64,000 nucleotides of DNA, from contig JAFDEE010000016.1 in assembly GCA_019310525.1 (NCBI GenBank), forward strand, positions 3,394-67,393. The letters are read 5' to 3'. Numbering within the stretch: the first letter of the stretch is position 1; every line of letters starts with the position of its first letter. The notes below the pieces were generated by a model, which was not told the origin of the DNA, made no database searches, and was given only the letters and a program-made list of their open reading frames with translations. The stretch comes from Deltaproteobacteria bacterium (GTDB taxonomy: Bacteria; Desulfobacterota; DSM-4660; Desulfatiglandales; HGW-15). The translations under genes were made by a program, and so were the position numbers. Positions 1 through 60,542 of the stretch are shown here, in pieces.

Positions 1-9
1 ATTAGAATT

Positions 10-264
10 ATGGCACATAAAAAAGCAGGGGGCAGCTCCCGAAACGGAAGGGACAGCGCCGGCCAACGGTACGGCGTGAAGAAATTCGGCGGCCAACGGG
101 TCAGGGCCGGTAACATCATTATCCGGCAGAAGGGAACCAAGATCCACCCGGGGACCAACGTGGGGATCGGAAAAGATTATACCCTTTATGCCAAGATCGA
201 CGGGTTCGTCGCCTTTGAACGAATGGGGAAAACGCGCAAAAAGGTCAGTGTTTACGCGGAATGA
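10..264 (+). CDS. rpmA: 50S ribosomal protein L27 (bL27)
   Basis: 84-aa ORF starting [16 protein letters not shown], the canonical bL27 N-terminus. It is followed by obg, as in many bacteria. Confidence 0.95.
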
Positions 265-2582: not shown

Positions 2583-4007
2583 ATGAAATCAAAAGGGAGG
2601 AAAAACCTTCGGCCTTTTTCCCGTTGTCTCCTCCCTCTATTTTTGGCCTTTTGTTTTCTCAGTGCCCCGTCCGCCTACCCGCTCTCAATCGAGAAGGAGC
2701 GCGCAGCGGGAGAGAAATTTCTACAGAATATCCGCAAACACTTTGAGATAGTAAAGGACCCTTATATCCAAGATTTCATCAACCAACTCGGCCGGTATCT
2801 TTCCTCTTCCCTTCAAACGAAGCCTTTTCCCTTTCACTTCTATGTGATCAACGCCCCCGCCCTGAACGCTTTTGCAGGACCCGGCGGACACATCTTCATC
2901 TTTTCGGGACTGATAAACATCTTGGAAGTGGATGAATTGGCCGCCGTGATCTGCCATGAAATCGGCCATGTATCCGCAAGGCACATCTCCCAGCGCATTG
3001 AAAAGAACAAGATGCTGGGAATAGCCACCATGGCCAGCGTGCTTGCTGCCGTTCTGATCGGAGGGAAGGCGGGGGGTGCCATCATCACGGGCTCCGTTGC
3101 CGCGGGAATGCAGGCCCAACTTCATTACAGCCGGGAGGACGAACGGCAGGCAGACCAGTTGGCCTTCAAGTACATGGACGCATCCGGTTTCTCTCCCTCT
3201 GCGATCATCAGGGTCCTGAAAAAACTCCAAAAAGAACGCTGGGTCGGGGGCGAGGAGATCCCTCCCTACCTCCTGACCCACCCAGGAGCCTCCGAGAGGA
3301 TCGCACGTATAGAGAGTATGCTTGCCGGGTACTCCAAAGGCTCTGTCAAGCCCGAGGCCGCCGAATTCAAGGCCCGGTATCCCATTTTCAAGACCGTTTT
3401 GACAGGCACCTGTCTTGATCCAGGGGAGGCGGAGCGGCGCTTCCAAGATCAGTTGGAACAGGATCCGGACGCTGGGCCGGCCCACCTGGGATTGGGAATC
3501 GCCCTGATGAGAAAGTCCGAATACGAGAGGGCGGCGAAACACCTCGAGCTTGCCCGAAAGGCCATGCCCCGGTCGGTTACCGTGCTTCGCTTTCTGGGAG
3601 AATCCTATCAGTTCCAGGGACGGGACGAGAAGGCTGTGAGGGTTCTGGAGGAGGCCCTTAGGCTGGAGAGAGGGAACCGATCGGTCCTGTACATCCTTGC
3701 GGGTTCTTACTTAAATCTTGAAAAATACCCACGGGCGATCCGCATTTACGAAAAGCTGAAGAACCTGAAGCCGGTGATGGAGGGAGTGTATTACCAGCTG
3801 GGGGTGGCCTATGGCAGGCAAAAGGAACTGGGCAGGGCACATTACAACTTCGGCCTGCATTTCGCCCGGATGAAGGACATGGAAAAGGCCCGGTTTCATT
3901 TCGAAAAGGCCCTCGCCTTCGCCCGCAACGACAGGACCATGGAAGAACGAATCAAAAAGGCTATGAGAAAACTACGGGCGTCCCCCGGTGGATCAAGACC
4001 GGATTAG
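2583..4007 (+). CDS. M48-family zinc metalloprotease with C-terminal TPR repeats (BepA/YfgC-like)
   Basis: HEIGH zinc motif (AAVICHEIGHVSARH), a hydrophobic signal-like N-terminus and TPR-like repeats in the C-terminal half. The ORF-track start is TTG at 2553. The ATG at 2583 follows AGGAG and is preferred. Confidence 0.8.
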   Translation: MKSKGRKNLRPFSRCLLPLFLAFCFLSAPSAYPLSIEKERAAGEKFLQNIRKHFEIVKDPYIQDFINQLGRYLSSSLQTKPFPFHFYVINAPALNAFAGPGGHIFIFSGLINILEVDELAAVICHEIGHVSARHISQRIEKNKMLGIATMASVLAAVLIGGKAGGAIITGSVAAGMQAQLHYSREDERQADQLAFKYMDASGFSPSAIIRVLKKLQKERWVGGEEIPPYLLTHPGASERIARIESMLAGYSKGSVKPEAAEFKARYPIFKTVLTGTCLDPGEAERRFQDQLEQDPDAGPAHLGLGIALMRKSEYERAAKHLELARKAMPRSVTVLRFLGESYQFQGRDEKAVRVLEEALRLERGNRSVLYILAGSYLNLEKYPRAIRIYEKLKNLKPVMEGVYYQLGVAYGRQKELGRAHYNFGLHFARMKDMEKARFHFEKALAFARNDRTMEERIKKAMRKLRASPGGSRPD

Positions 4008-5909: not shown

Positions 5910-7934
5910 ATGACGCCTTCCACCCATCCGGCCGCCCTCACATACCTTGGTGTACCAGGGTATGCATATGGATGGGCCATGCTGGTCATCGGCCTTGGGC
6001 TCTTTGCCTGGATTCTCTCCCGCCGCTACCGGATCCTTTCGGCGGGCCAGTCTGATCCAAGATTCACCTCTATAGGGCAACGTTTAACCGGCCTTGTCAC
6101 TTACGGTCTGATCCAGAAGAGACAACCGAGGTTCCTCTGGGCCGGCATCATCCACATCCTGATCTTTTGGGGTTTCATGGTCCTTGGGATCCGCTCAATG
6201 GACCTGATCACCCAGTCCATCGGGCTGCCCCTGTTGCGCCCTATCCTGGAAGGGGCATTCGGCACATTTTACGGGGGCCTCAAGGATGTCTTCGAACTCC
6301 TGGTCCTCGGGGCCTGCCTTTGGGCCATCCTGAGGCGGGCCGTCCTGAAACCCGCCAGGTACAAAGGAAGCCATCAGTTCGAGGCCTTCCTGGTCCTCGG
6401 CCTGATCTCCTTCCTCATGGTCACGGACATGTTCTACGAGGGAAGCGGCTTGCTGCTTCTGGGCGGGGACGGGGGATGGCTTCCCGCCTCCAGGAGTGCG
6501 GCCTTCCTGCTCTCGGGCTCTTCCTCTCCTTTTTTGCGCTCCATTCACAATGGTTGTTTCTGGTTCCATCTCCTGGCCTTTTTCTTCTTCTTGAACTTCC
6601 TCCCCTTGGGAAAACATTTTCATATCATAACCGCCCTTCCCAACGTCTTTTTCAGGAGGTTGACCAAGGGCTCCCTGAAGCCAGCCCGGTGGGGCGTTGA
6701 GGATATCGAGGAACTGGAGAGCCTGGGAGTGGAAAAATTCGAGGACTTCACCTGGAAGCATATCCTGGACTTCTTTACCTGCACGGAATGCGGGCGTTGC
6801 TCCGACATGTGTCCTGCCAACGCCGTAGGCCGGCCACTGTCCCCCAAATTGCTCACCATGAAGCTGAGAGACCACGGCTACAGGAAATATCCGGTTTTCG
6901 GTTCGGGGAAAGAGAAGGAGGATGGGTCCGCCCTGGTTGGGGATCTCATCACCTTCGAGGAAATTTGGTCCTGTACCACCTGTGGGGCCTGCGAAGAAGA
7001 ATGCCCCGTTTTCATCGAATATATCGACAAGATCGTGGACATGCGCAGGAACCTGATCGAGACGTCCCGGAATCCCAAATCCTTCAACCAGGTGCTGATG
7101 CGCTTTGAAAAGACCGGAAATCCCTTTGGAAAGCCCCCGGCAAAGCGGGCCGAATGGACCGAGGAACTGAGGGAAGAGGTTCCCGTGAAGATCCTTGAAG
7201 AAGGGGACGAGGTGGATGTGCTCTTTTTCGTGGACAGTTACGGTTCCTTCGATCCGGCGGTCCAGGATATCGCCGCCAACATCGCCAGGGGCCTCCACCG
7301 GGCCGGTGTGGATTTCGGAATCCTGGGACCTCTCGAAACGGACACCGGGCACCAGGTCCGGCGCATGGGGGAGGAGGGTCTTTTCCAGTTCCTCGTGGAG
7401 ACAAACCTCGAAACCCTTAAGAGCATCCGGTTCAACCGCATCGTGACCCTGGATCCCCATGCATTCAATACCCTGCTGAAAGACTATCCCGCCCGCTGGG
7501 AAGTCCGGCATTACGTCCCCTTTTTCCTCTCACTCCTTGAAAGAGGCGCCATCAAGCCTATAAGACCCCTTGAGGGGAATAACACCTATACTTACCACGA
7601 TCCGTGCTACCTTGGGAGGCACAACGGGATCTACGATGAGCCCCGCCGTCTCTTGCAGGCACTGCCCGGTATGAATCTGGTGGAAATGGAGAGGAGGCGG
7701 GATCGGAGTTTCTGCTGCGGTGGCGGAGATATCATCCTCTGGCACGAGATCGAGCAGGAGGAGGAGAGGATGGCTTCAAGGAGAATCACGATGGCCAGGG
7801 AGGTCGGGGCGGATACCATCGTGACGGCATGCCCCTTCTGCCTGATTCATTTCGAAGATGCCATCAAGACGGGGGGACTCGAAGAACAGATGAGGGTGGT
7901 GGACCTCATGGCGTTGCTTCTCTCCACCCTTTAG
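5910..7934 (+). CDS. membrane-bound FeS oxidoreductase (HdrD/GlpC-like, CCG domains) associated with EtfAB
   Basis: 674 aa with a hydrophobic N-terminal third containing several predicted TM helices. Two ferredoxin-type motifs (CTECGRCSDMCP, CTTCGACEEECP) and two Cys-rich CCG-type regions (DPCYLGRH...FCCGGGD, TACPFCLIHF). It lies directly upstream of etfB-etfA. Confidence 0.85.
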   Translation: MTPSTHPAALTYLGVPGYAYGWAMLVIGLGLFAWILSRRYRILSAGQSDPRFTSIGQRLTGLVTYGLIQKRQPRFLWAGIIHILIFWGFMVLGIRSMDLITQSIGLPLLRPILEGAFGTFYGGLKDVFELLVLGACLWAILRRAVLKPARYKGSHQFEAFLVLGLISFLMVTDMFYEGSGLLLLGGDGGWLPASRSAAFLLSGSSSPFLRSIHNGCFWFHLLAFFFFLNFLPLGKHFHIITALPNVFFRRLTKGSLKPARWGVEDIEELESLGVEKFEDFTWKHILDFFTCTECGRCSDMCPANAVGRPLSPKLLTMKLRDHGYRKYPVFGSGKEKEDGSALVGDLITFEEIWSCTTCGACEEECPVFIEYIDKIVDMRRNLIETSRNPKSFNQVLMRFEKTGNPFGKPPAKRAEWTEELREEVPVKILEEGDEVDVLFFVDSYGSFDPAVQDIAANIARGLHRAGVDFGILGPLETDTGHQVRRMGEEGLFQFLVETNLETLKSIRFNRIVTLDPHAFNTLLKDYPARWEVRHYVPFFLSLLERGAIKPIRPLEGNNTYTYHDPCYLGRHNGIYDEPRRLLQALPGMNLVEMERRRDRSFCCGGGDIILWHEIEQEEERMASRRITMAREVGADTIVTACPFCLIHFEDAIKTGGLEEQMRVVDLMALLLSTL

Positions 7935-8836: not shown

Positions 8837-9805
8837 ATGGGAGATATCTTCGTTGTTGTGGAACACAGGCAGGGAGTGATTCGGGAAATCACCCATGAGA
8901 TGCTCTGGAAGGCCGGGGAACTGGGTCGAGCACTCTCCCGGAAGGTGTCGGCCGTTTTGTTTTGCCATGATGGGGCCCGGATGATCGAGGAGATCAGGGA
9001 TCGGGCGGACCGGATTCTCCTGGTGGAAAGCGACGCTTTTAAAAATTTCAGCAGCGACCTTTACAAGGAACTCCTGGCACGTCTCATTGCCGAGCATGCC
9101 CCCTTTCTCACCCTGATGGGCCATACTGCCTGGGGCATGGATCTTGCCCCGGCCCTCAGCGTCAAGAGTGGACTCCCCCTTGCCACGGATTGCATGGATA
9201 TTCTCTGGGAGGGGGACCGTCTTAAGGCGGTCAGGCAGGTCTATTCCGGCAAGCTTTTCTCCAAGGTTTCTTTCAAGGAGGCCCCTGGATACCTTGCAAC
9301 CATAAGGGCGGGGGCCTTTCCACAGGAGAAGTCAGGGGAGCGTTCGGCCGAGGTACAGGAGATCGATCTTCCGGCCGACTTACCCGCTGAACGGAGGCGG
9401 TTCGTTGAATTCGTGGATACGGGCGCGGGAAAAGTGGATATCTCTCAGGCCGACCTCCTTATCTCCGTGGGCCGGGGGATTGGAGAAGAGGAAAACATCG
9501 GGAAGATCAAGGAACTGGCCGACCGCCTGGGAGGAGTGTTGGCCTGTTCCCGTCCTGTGGTGGACAAGAACTGGCTCCCCAAGTACCACCAGGTGGGGAC
9601 CTCCGGAAAATCCGTGAAGCCCAAGGTCTACCTCGCCCTCGGAATCAGCGGGGCCTTCCAGCATGTGGCGGGCATAAGCGGCGCCGGCACCGTGATCGCC
9701 GTAAACAAGGACAAAAAGGCCCCTATTTTCAGGGTCGCCCACTACGGGGTGGTGGACGACCTGTTCAAGGTGGCCGATGCCCTGATGGAAAAAATCGGAG
9801 GATAA
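8837..9805 (+). CDS. etfA: electron transfer flavoprotein, alpha subunit
   Basis: 322 aa. The C-terminal FAD-binding segment ACSRPVVDKNWLPKYHQVGTSGKSVKPKVYLALGISGAFQHVAGI is typical of ETF-alpha. Confidence 0.9.
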   Translation: MGDIFVVVEHRQGVIREITHEMLWKAGELGRALSRKVSAVLFCHDGARMIEEIRDRADRILLVESDAFKNFSSDLYKELLARLIAEHAPFLTLMGHTAWGMDLAPALSVKSGLPLATDCMDILWEGDRLKAVRQVYSGKLFSKVSFKEAPGYLATIRAGAFPQEKSGERSAEVQEIDLPADLPAERRRFVEFVDTGAGKVDISQADLLISVGRGIGEEENIGKIKELADRLGGVLACSRPVVDKNWLPKYHQVGTSGKSVKPKVYLALGISGAFQHVAGISGAGTVIAVNKDKKAPIFRVAHYGVVDDLFKVADALMEKIGG

Positions 9806-33904: not shown

Positions 33905-34020
33905 GAACCCTTTGGAAAGTCTCTGATTTTACGCAAGATCAAAGAGAACGAAACTTTTAACCGCTAAGTATGCCGGAGGGGACAGGCATCCATACATTGA
34001 AGTATTTCGAAAAAGGGGAC
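33905..34020 (+). repeat. AT-rich dispersed repeat, copy S (homologous to 59455-59595)
   Basis: Shares GAACCCTTTGGAAA, CAAGATCAAAGA/CAAGGTCAAGGA, ACGAAACTTTTAACC/ACGAAAATTTTAACC and ATACATTGAAGTATTTCGA/ATACATTGAGTATTTCGA blocks, in the same order and orientation, with the element nested in riboswitch 1. It ends at the CBS gene RBS. Confidence 0.65.
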
Positions 34021-59240: not shown

Positions 59241-59289
59241 ACCCTGCAACCGTATTGACTTGCCTCGGATTTTGTATAATATGGTATCA

Positions 59290-59655
59290 ACATACTTCCA
59301 GGTGCCCCACTGGGGGCTTAATAGGGAACCCCGTTAGAATCGGGGACGGGCCCGCCGCTGTGATCGGGGACGAAAACCGCGGTCCGCATTTCACAGGTTC
59401 TCCGGAACCGCTGAAATGAGGACAAAAGCCACTGTCCGGAATGCACACACGGATGAACCCTTTGAAAACGTTCAATTTTGTTCAAGGTCAAGGAAGACGA
59501 AAATTTTAACCACAGGAATACATTGAGTATTTCGAGGATTAAAATTTGAGTCTGACGCAGAAATTGGGCAAAAGGGGGCGTTTTCCAAAGGGTTCGAGGA
59601 TGGGAAGGCGCGGGGAGTAGGAAGAACCGTAAGTCAGAAGACCTGCCTGGAAGAA
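59290..59655 (+). promoter_or_regulatory. cobalamin (B12) riboswitch 1, unusually long
   Basis: Conserved elements in the correct order: GGUGCC, AAUAGGGAA (59320-59328), GUUAGAAUC, CGGGCCCGCCGCUGU, GCCACUG (59428-59434), GGGAAGGC (59601-59608), and the B12 box AGUCAGAAGACCUGCC (59632-59647). A 141-nt element is nested between GCCACUG and GGGAAGGC. Confidence 0.75.
59455..59595 (+). repeat. AT-rich 141-nt element with 16/17-nt terminal inverted repeats, copy R (nested in riboswitch 1)
   Basis: GAACCCTTTGAAAACG (59455-59470) is the reverse complement of CGTTTTCCAAAGGGTTC (59579-59595), apart from one extra C. The interior is AT-rich, and its left ~80 nt are homologous to 33905-34010. Confidence 0.7.
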
Positions 59656-59715
59656 AAGAGGTAGCCCTCGCGGAACAGGGCTTGCCGACCAAGATCTCGA
59701 GGATAAAAACGGGAT

Positions 59716-59756
59716 ATCCCCGGATCGATGCCTATGTCGATCCGGGGATTTTTTTT
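59716..59756 (+). terminator. rho-independent terminator (expression platform of riboswitch 1)
   Basis: A 13-bp perfect stem ATCCCCGGATCGA / TCGATCCGGGGAT with an 8-nt loop, followed by a run of about 8 T. Confidence 0.85.
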
Positions 59757-59917
59757 CTACACGGGTTGCGTCTCATCAAGTCCCTTCTTTCCAGCCCTGT
59801 TCCGACCTGGGAGCCCTCTGCCCCGAAATGGCATTTGATTTTGCCGGTTTCGGAAAACTGACTTATATTTATTTATAACTAAGTGATTTTATTCGATTAA
59901 TTGGGAGGGGATGATCG

Positions 59918-60331
59918 ATGGCCTGCCATGAAGGAATCAAGAAGGCGGTACGTTTTATAAGGAATCATTTCAGGGAGCCGTTGACCCTTGATCAGGTGGC
60001 GATGGAGAGCGGCATGAGCAAATATCACTTTGCAAGGGTCTTCAAGGTTTCTACAGGCATGACTTTCAAGGAATACCACAACCGGAGACGGATCGAGGAG
60101 GCGAAGGCCCTGTTGTGTAATCGTACGATGCGGGTGACTGACGTGTGTTATGAGGTGGGATTCAATGACATCTCTTATTTTGACCGGGTTTTCAGGCGTC
60201 TGGTAGGCGTCAACCCCACTTCATATAAGAGGCGTCCGGAAACAACATCATCCGATTTTTCTTCTCCCGCAAAGGAAAAAGGCAATTTTGTGCAAATAAA
60301 AGGCAATATCATCCAAGCATTTCAAAAATAA
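59918..60331 (+). CDS. stand-alone AraC/XylS-type HTH DNA-binding protein (MarA/SoxS-sized)
   Basis: 137 aa comprising only the dual-HTH AraC C-terminal module (LTLDQVAMESGMSKYHFARVFKVSTGMTFKEYHNRRRIEEAKALL...VTDVCYEVGFNDISYFDRVFRRLVGVNPTSYKRR). There is no ligand or dimerisation domain. GGGAGGGG SD. Confidence 0.8.
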   Translation: MACHEGIKKAVRFIRNHFREPLTLDQVAMESGMSKYHFARVFKVSTGMTFKEYHNRRRIEEAKALLCNRTMRVTDVCYEVGFNDISYFDRVFRRLVGVNPTSYKRRPETTSSDFSSPAKEKGNFVQIKGNIIQAFQK

Positions 60332-60344
60332 AATTCGATATAGT

Positions 60345-60525
60345 CCACGCAATTCTTCAGAGCAGGAGAAAGGGAAAGCGGTGAGAGGCCGCTGCTGCCC
60401 CGCAACTGTATTCCCGATTCTCGAACAATGAGAATCCGTGTCCAGGCCATTAGAGCCACTGTTCCGTAAAGGTTGGAATGGGAAGGCGGTCGGGACCGGG
60501 AAAGCCAGGAAACCTTGCCTGTTCT
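60345..60525 (+). promoter_or_regulatory. cobalamin (B12) riboswitch 2, canonical size
   Basis: AAAGGGAAAGCGGUGAGAGGCCGCUGCUGCCCCGCAACUGU, GCCACUG (60455-60461), GGGAAGGC (60480-60487), and B12 box AGCCAGGAAACCUUGCC (60503-60519). Confidence 0.85.
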
Positions 60526-60542
60526 TCTTTTGCCGAGGCCCA

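Follow-up and report, generated by a model that had tools for sequence, protein, structure and literature searches.

The stretch of DNA analysed here (the window) comprises 64,000 nucleotides (nt) of contig JAFDEE010000016.1 from a Deltaproteobacteria bacterium. It carries a cobalamin riboswitch (riboswitch 1, aptamer at 59295-59653 on the plus strand, insert included) upstream of a gene for a small AraC-type regulator, and within that aptamer lies an AT-rich palindromic segment of 141 nt (59455-59595, plus strand) that is probably an insertion resembling a miniature transposable element with inverted repeats (MITE). The aptamer was delimited by a match to Rfam family RF00174 in its 5' part, by its minimum-free-energy (MFE) fold and by alignment after excision of the insert. 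All of the neighbouring features likewise lie on the plus strand. A sigma-70-like promoter, TTGACT ... TATAAT/TAATAT, is predicted by consensus scan at 59255-59282, 5' of the aptamer. The expression platform ends in an intrinsic terminator at 59716-59759, with a 15-pair stem (59716-59749), a T run and a perfect 13-nt inverted repeat. Next comes the gene for the regulator, a helix-turn-helix protein of 137 amino acids (59918-60331; Pfam HTH_18, 8.7e-24, and HTH_AraC), and then a second, compact cobalamin riboswitch (riboswitch 2, 60336-60530; Rfam 73.8 bits) with an 18-nt spacer, followed by a 276-amino-acid open reading frame (ORF), a DUF4465/PEP-CTERM protein gene and TonB-receptor genes. Judging from this layout, the transcription factor appears to be under the control of a B12 riboswitch.

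The core of riboswitch 1 is present in full. It comprises P1 (CTTCCAGG, also written CUUCCAGG, at 59295-59302, paired with CCTGGAAG, also written CCUGGAAG, at 59646-59653), the GGGAA...GGUG hairpin, the stem formed by GCCACUG and GGGAAGGC, and the AGNCAGAAGACCUGCC B12 box. The palindromic segment is nested within the aptamer, between GCCACUG and GGGAAGGC, as the first-pass annotation of the window had placed it. The conserved 5' strand of the stem that receives the insert, GCCACUGUCC (59428-59437), is followed by the remnant of the original terminal loop (59438-59450); past the insert, the aptamer resumes with GGGAAGGC at 59602-59609, then AGUCAGAAGACCUGCC, then the 3' strand of P1. RF00174 matches riboswitch 1 with 37.7 bits (gathering cut-off 31.5) and over 59283-59453 only. 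This alignment, which covers the 5' 171 nt, is forced, with the true GCCACUG put on the 3' B12-box region; the match is low and misaligned because the model cannot span the insert. Elsewhere in the aptamer, a lineage-specific hairpin of about 42 nt occurs at 59382-59423, an inverted repeat with 19-nt arms that are 84% complementary. It occupies the usual variable region of the peripheral arm, where Rfam puts variable inserts in relatives, and is absent from two of the orthologous loci described below (L064 and L071).

The segment itself is small and non-coding, the sole ORF across it being a spurious minus-strand ORF of 124 amino acids that starts with TTG and also covers the riboswitch. Its left end, GAACCCTTTGAAAACG (59455-59470), is the reverse complement of its right end, CGTTTTCCAAAGGGTTC (59579-59595), bar one extra C. 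The termini, GAACCCTTTG and CAAAGGGTTC, thus form terminal inverted repeats in which 16 of 17 positions are complementary, and pairing continues inward over the full length. The G+C content is 39%, compared with 55% for the window and 58% for the adjoining aptamer. These values bear out the first-pass description of an AT-rich 141-nt segment with inverted ends. The long closing helix that it had proposed is also recovered by folding prediction, in which all 141 nt form a single hairpin of 54 pairs at -60.6 kcal/mol; 200 dinucleotide shuffles gave -27.3 ± 3.1 kcal/mol (z -10.7), none folding as well. Searched against Rfam at permissive thresholds, the element gave no meaningful match (best in the window 15.9 bits, E 4.3), and neither did the loci of its relatives, where MIR7807 reached 34 bits for one locus (L008) against a cut-off of 90 bits.

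For comparison with orthologues, we retrieved homologues of the AraC protein with their contigs (retrieved loci are given L numbers). A cobalamin riboswitch lies directly upstream of the AraC homologue at six loci (L058, L061, L064, L069, L070 and L071), and at four of these (L058, L069, L070 and L071) a second riboswitch lies downstream, as in the window. The order kept elsewhere is cobalamin riboswitch, small stand-alone AraC gene (about 110-170 amino acids), second cobalamin riboswitch, then DUF4465 and TonB-receptor genes. The host locus is of interest in itself for this arrangement, a B12 riboswitch over an AraC-type regulator together with a second B12 riboswitch, which recurs at at least six other loci. 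The orthologous copies of riboswitch 1 are 186-216 nt long where complete and score 61.5-110.6 bits, the lowest being the 5'-truncated L061. Compared for presence or absence of the segment, as the first-pass annotation had suggested, all six lack it. With its core motifs, its P1 and terminator-type platform, and the AraC regulator, second cobalamin riboswitch and B12-uptake-type genes after it, riboswitch 1 is otherwise like its RF00174 relatives, but its terminal-loop spacer is not. From GCCACUG to GGGAAGGC this spacer measures 17-18 nt in 12 related cobalamin aptamers, the six orthologues included, and ends in ...G(G/A/C/U)AU, whereas it measures 167 nt (20 + 147) in riboswitch 1. Because of this difference, the sequence comparison identifies the segment as an insertion and not an ordinary variable loop. 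A short spacer is the usual state at this position in these relatives, in line with the short hairpin that had been assumed, and the competing possibility, that the segment is a variable loop common among homologous riboswitches, finds no counterpart in the 12 relatives.

Excision makes the same point. Since the insert derailed the MAFFT alignment of the intact riboswitch, we used an excised construct and a motif-anchored spacer table. Removal of 147 nt (59456-59602) yields GCCACUG-UCCGGAAUGCACACACGGAU-GGGAAGGC, also written ...CACACGGAUGGGAAGGC, with ...GGAU directly before GGGAAGGC, the junction found in all relatives. The excised riboswitch aligns column for column with five relatives, the invariant GGAUGGGAAGGC included, and the RNAalifold consensus of construct and relatives recovers the canonical helices with 22 covarying pairs. 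The first-pass annotation had held that deletion of 59455-59595 leaves a normal compact aptamer; the compact aptamer stands, but the length does not, as 147 nt have to be removed and the 141-nt deletion leaves a surplus of six bases, GAGGAU. A vertically evolved expansion of an ordinary variable loop, with no mobile origin, might draw on the 4-5-nt inserts that the Rfam model tolerates at the terminal loop in relatives, and on the lineage-specific hairpin that this aptamer also carries at 59382-59423. Such growth in situ is contradicted by the sequence comparisons, namely the jump in spacer length, an AT-richness unlike the surroundings, homologous copies at an unrelated locus of the window and in other phyla (see below), and the exact restoration of the ancestral junction when the segment is removed with its flanking direct repeat. 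We regard it as very improbable.

That direct repeat is GGATG, which brackets the insert at 59451-59455 and 59598-59602. In the RNA, the left copy would offer a decoy 3' strand for the stem, and the right copy lies within GGAUGG, the canonical 3' strand, with GGGAAGGC directly after it. One strain variant (L002) has AGGAT-element-G-AGGAT at this site. Three independent metagenome assemblies (L001-L003) contain the insert. Its sequence is identical in all three wherever it is determined, an N run covering the first three bases in L003, and insert and junctions are identical in the window, L001 and L002, the latter two being gap-free and from different samples. The Ns of L003 (438-453, about 59440-59457 of the window) fall exactly at the left junction of the element, where repeat-induced assembly ambiguity or population heterogeneity at the site would produce them. 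They are the one observation that would suit an assembly or chimera artefact. Because the insert is present in three independent assemblies, and the N run looks like a repeat-induced scaffolding gap, we consider an artefact the least credible of the explanations weighed here. Only two single-nucleotide polymorphisms (SNPs) of the aptamer occur among the strain variants, both in the loop remnant beside the insert, which the insertion has made redundant (L002 A to G in the GGAAUG stretch; C to A in the CACACGG stretch). The aptamer is otherwise invariant among the four strain-level sequences, whose divergence is too low to test constraint, and the near-identical strains show no polymorphism of the insert.

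A second, degenerate copy of the element lies in the window at 33905-34012 (plus strand), between a gene for a SurA-like PPIase and a CBS-domain gene, and was detected by blastn, alignment and nhmmer. In this relic, the left arm is preserved at 76% identity over 58 nt, as is the central ATACATTGA(A/G)GTATTTCGA block, with about 29 nt between AACC and ATACATTGA where the full copy has 6 nt; its right arm is missing, and it no longer forms a hairpin. The alignment to the element is collinear, with a blastn E value of 1.3e-5 and a collinear 19-nt block. Nhmmer finds the relic at 9.8e-4 with the element as single query and at E 2.7e-5 with a family profile built without the relic; the 1.9e-14 obtained with an arm profile is not independent, as that profile holds the relic's own left arm. 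Strain polymorphism was sought at this site as well; in three further contigs, the flanking genes are spaced exactly as in the window. An unfiltered search of the window with a covariance model of the family detected no additional hairpin copies. An nhmmer match at 9010-9058 (E 0.0075) lies in coding sequence and was judged to be chance.

Relatives of the element were sought by scanning genome and metagenome contigs for the termini pattern GAACCCTTTG N105-135 CAAAGGGTTC, that is, two 10-nt termini and 125-155 nt in total. The 21 and 33 matches obtained (54 in total) are near the chance expectation, and four of them are clearly related to the window element: L008 and L023, both from the Bacteroidota metagenome-assembled genome (MAG) P01_C01_bin.28, L021 from Bacteroidales UBA5342, and L022 from Kingella kingae ATCC 23330. 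A further copy (L008b) sits at the contig edge of L008, outside the search pattern, so that the Bacteroidota MAG holds three copies in 12 kb of retrieved DNA, two in L008 and one in L023. The full copies, at 59455-59595(+) in the window, 3615-3754(-) and 2-141(+) in L008, 3632-3772(-) in L023, 644-783(-) in L021 and 6315-6454(+) in L022, are all intergenic, and the relatives are 140-141 nt long though the pattern allowed 125-155 nt. When the seeded termini are left aside, 78-84 of 121 interior positions are identical to the window element (dinucleotide-shuffle z 4.3-9.6; at most one of 1000 shuffles reaches the observed score), and the other 49 pattern matches score far lower. Conversely, when a profile of the interior alone is made without the window sequence, its best match in the 64 kb is the window element (E 1.2e-3) and its second best the relic.

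The copies share a predicted fold. Beyond a 10-bp terminal stem and a single-base bulge, an A/U-rich stem faces a G-rich 3' arm; there is an asymmetric loop carrying ACGNAGA on its 3' side and a second loop with CAG/GAGG, and the stem at the apex covaries. Perfect 5-bp target duplications flank L008 (TAGCA) and L021 (TTTTA), and those of L022 and L023 are imperfect. By sequence, the element is a member of a dispersed repeat family, and this family of palindromic repeats of about 140 nt is apparently undescribed and common to distant phyla. One further pattern match, L016, has the termini and a 5-bp repeat but was rejected, as it falls within a coding ORF and its interior is not similar (z 0.1); many others are unrelated palindromes or belong to other repeat families. 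A scan of viral_contigs gave one match to the termini (L065), a pattern match alone, and blastn searches of plasmids with the element and with a Bacteroidota copy returned no match.

We assign a probability of roughly 0.78 to the reading that a MITE-like repeat, palindromic over its whole length, entered a stem of the cobalamin riboswitch at its terminal loop and 3' strand. The first-pass annotation had offered such an insertion as one option and an accessory RNA domain as the other; the orthologues that lack the segment, the relic, the related elements in unrelated bacteria and the GGATG flanks all speak for the insertion. The element would have transposed, as a non-coding repeat, into DNA that specifies part of the GCCACUG...GGGAAGGC stem, namely its terminal loop and its 3' strand, in a riboswitch that presumably controls the AraC-type regulator through its intrinsic terminator. 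Transposition may have been of the DDE type with a 5-bp target duplication, and would have left the short GGATG duplication (AGGAT...G-AGGAT in one strain) on either side of the insert. As one of the duplicates still adjoins GGGAAGGC, the canonical stem CUGUCC/GGAUGG can still form, and the element would stand on the former 20-nt loop as a self-contained hairpin of 54 pairs. We take the element to be selfish or neutral at this site rather than an adapted domain. By size, terminal inverted repeats and presence or absence, it is a MITE-like palindromic repeat, with target duplication and copy number clean only in the relatives.

Several observations count against this reading. The target-site duplications that the first-pass annotation had advised looking for are perfect in two relatives, but the window copy has a flanking repeat, GGATG, only if its boundaries are shifted by 1-3 nt. 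At the boundaries of the family, the window copy is flanked by CGGAT and GAGGA, without a clean 5-bp duplication; to obtain one, the boundaries have to be offset by 1 nt or taken instead as AACCC...GGGTTCGA. The source organism shows one full copy and one relic, within 64 kb, the genome and metagenome collections scanned not including it. No autonomous insertion sequence with the element's termini came up, no scan having been aimed at one. The pairing of the left duplicate predicted below could impair the interrupted riboswitch. Finally, an advantage in folding on one strand, together with conserved internal loops, is not expected of a purely DNA-level parasite.

This last point concerns the RNA strands. 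In five of the six copies, the same aligned strand folds 15-21 kcal/mol better than its complement, forming 5-8 G.U pairs where the complement has 0-2; for three copies, the energies are -60.6 vs -39.5, -56.9 vs -40.8 and -54.5 vs -37.2 kcal/mol. L008 and L021 have their G.U pairs at different positions, and in L008b both partners of one terminal-stem pair have changed. Transcription in the window yields the better-folding strand, as it apparently does for most other copies, which are sense to the flanking ORFs. With six copies, these patterns are no more than suggestive of selection on the family at the level of a single strand, probably RNA, and they make the family worth a proper survey. 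Because a G.U-rich strand asymmetry, conserved ACGNAGA and GAGG loops and covarying stems recur in Bacteroidota, Kingella and the deltaproteobacterial MAG, the hairpin of about 140 nt could instead be a horizontally spreading module of structured RNA, selected on one strand and with an RNA-level function of its own, for example as a site for RNase III, a binding site for a protein or a determinant of mRNA stability. Its copy in the riboswitch would then be an acquired peripheral domain that alters the B12-dependent control of the AraC regulator.

The bias towards one strand, the transcription of that strand in the window and the sense orientation of most copies favour such a module, as do the covariation and loop motifs shared between phyla and the identity of the element across three other assemblies in which the only aptamer SNPs fall in the adjoining loop remnant. 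Yet the strand bias, seen in six copies only, may be partly inherited rather than independently selected. The element matches no Rfam family, and perfect 5-bp target duplications with multi-copy intergenic scatter are classic traits of a selfish MITE. Moreover, the orthologous riboswitches work without such a domain, and the relic at 33905 has lost its hairpin, which implies that the host does not maintain every copy. On balance, we think a functional RNA module unlikely. If it were one, the riboswitch copy would exemplify RNA domain accretion in nature: a riboswitch that controls a transcription factor would have captured a mobile hairpin as an additional peripheral arm, which adjusts how the riboswitch folds, is processed by RNases or recruits proteins.

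Whether selfish or not, a MITE-like insertion of this kind has consequences for the fold of the aptamer. Folded with and without the insert, as had been proposed, the RNA keeps the same aptamer helices: the MFE structure of 59283-59665 is that of the excised construct plus the element, which branches from the former terminal loop as a separate hairpin. In this structure, it is the right-hand duplicate that closes the stem GCC-A-CUGUCC / GGAUGG-GAA-GGC. The ensemble is less uniform. Pair probabilities are p > 0.98 for the element's closing pairs, about 0.32 for the canonical stem and about 0.35-0.41 for pairing of the same 5' strand with the left duplicate, CGGAUG; the constrained minima are -152.1 kcal/mol for the canonical stem and -148.3 kcal/mol for the left-duplicate pairing. 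According to these predictions, the duplication probably both rescues the aptamer, by leaving an intact 3' strand beside GGGAAGGC, and creates a decoy, which is transcribed about 147 nt before the canonical right copy. The distance from the 3' end of the aptamer to the terminator is unchanged by the insert, and for this reason a kinetic switch acting during transcription would still be feasible. On the predicted folding, riboswitch function may tolerate the insert, which the first-pass annotation had proposed to act as a helix extension. We rate the chance that the riboswitch still binds B12 and terminates at about even, given the predicted competition of the left duplicate for the stem.

Between the terminator and the AraC start codon, at 59841-59869, there is another sigma-70-like promoter match, TTGCCG-17-TATATT, which could, on its sequence, allow AraC expression without riboswitch control. 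Riboswitch 1 might accordingly be an inactivated, decaying pseudo-riboswitch, with AraC expressed from its own promoter or unregulated. Besides the promoter-like site, this would agree with a left CGGAUG that is predicted to pair at a frequency similar to that of the right copy (p about 0.40, compared with 0.32) and is made some 147 nt earlier, and with an Rfam score of 37.7 bits where orthologues reach 61.5-110.6. That score, however, reflects a model that does not span the insert rather than decay of the core, and the conserved core, P1, promoter and terminator are all intact. The aptamer is also invariant in four strains bar the two SNPs of the loop remnant, a divergence too low to prove constraint. 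Inactivation is therefore a possibility that we consider doubtful, although less so than any of the other alternatives.

Among known repeats, a MITE-like element of this description most resembles ERIC/IRU of enterobacteria, the Rickettsia palindromic elements (RPEs) and Correia/nemis of Neisseria. These are likewise about 100-170 nt long and non-coding, with terminal inverted repeats that extend into an imperfect palindrome over the whole length, and they are dispersed, mostly intergenic, co-transcribed with neighbouring genes and flanked by short target duplications. ERIC and Correia transcripts form hairpins that affect mRNA processing, and the target duplication of both is TA. The present family shares no recognised sequence similarity with any of the three. 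It has GAACCCTTTG termini and, in the relatives, duplications of 5 bp; it spans Bacteroidota, a betaproteobacterium and a deltaproteobacterial MAG; and one of its copies is nested in an aptamer. The RPEs are known to enter functional genes, which survive the insertion (review PMC10969869). No resemblance to any named MITE was recognised; Chunjie of Geobacter, at 178-235 bp, is a different family. Integron attC sites, too, are imperfect palindromes that can reach about 141 bp, contain bulged bases and fold in a strand-specific manner. The ends of the element, GATGAAC ... GTTCGAG, do not conform to the R''/R' consensus RYYYAAC ... GTTRRRY, and attC identity was rejected; there are also no cassette arrays here, and the family copies have 5-bp target duplications.

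Full-text literature searches brought up no published MITE that lies inside one single aptamer. The nearest case is a pneumococcal BOX element between two T-box riboswitches upstream of the trp operon, where regulation apparently survives (Croucher et al. 2011, PMC3049150). There too, a small, structured, dispersed repeat lies within a riboswitch-containing leader and is co-transcribed. The BOX element, however, sits between two complete riboswitches, whereas here a single aptamer is interrupted between its core motifs and its stem would be rebuilt by the target duplication. Riboswitch 1 would thus be a natural example of a structured regulatory RNA that has absorbed a 147-nt mobile insertion at a solvent-exposed terminal loop, and a target duplication that regenerates the broken helix would be one concrete way for peripheral RNA domains to originate. 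Selfish DNA may in this way sit inside, or add to, a structured RNA, and the modelled sensor can in principle still fold because the insertion duplicated the bases that rebuild the stem. The case also exposes a blind spot of annotation. Rfam truncates and misaligns a riboswitch interrupted in this manner (37.7 bits here, about 60-110 in orthologues), and for that reason such riboswitches are probably under-counted.

Some further observations concern the element's sequence, its termini and the locus. The motif TTCGAGGAT is present both at the centre of the element (59531-59539) and at its right junction (59593-59601), and CTCGAGGAT occurs at 59696-59704 in the expression platform, just 5' of the terminator; the 16-mers ATTTCGAGGATTAAAA and ATCTCGAGGATAAAAA agree at 14 of 16 positions. 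The recurrence of TTCGAGGAT and CTCGAGGAT may be due to chance, or may mark a pairing or recognition site. Other segments of about 129-144 nt also have GAACCCTTTG...CAAAGGGTTC termini, with unrelated interiors such as GAACCCTTTGTCCTGGCGCC...GGCACCAAGACAAAGGGTTC, and recur within the same or related genomes. Their carriers are Candidatus Uhrbacteria and related metagenome contigs (L011, L018, L028, L030 and L032), a Flavobacteriales MAG (L007/L009) and Poribacteria (L015/L019), and by their sequences they may represent further repeat families or conserved palindromic sites. At the orthologous loci, a c-di-GMP-I-GGC riboswitch is also present after the second cobalamin riboswitch in L070 and L071. 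In L061-L064, the AraC homologue lies directly upstream of a Flp/Tad pilus operon, with a B12 riboswitch before AraC in L061 and L064.

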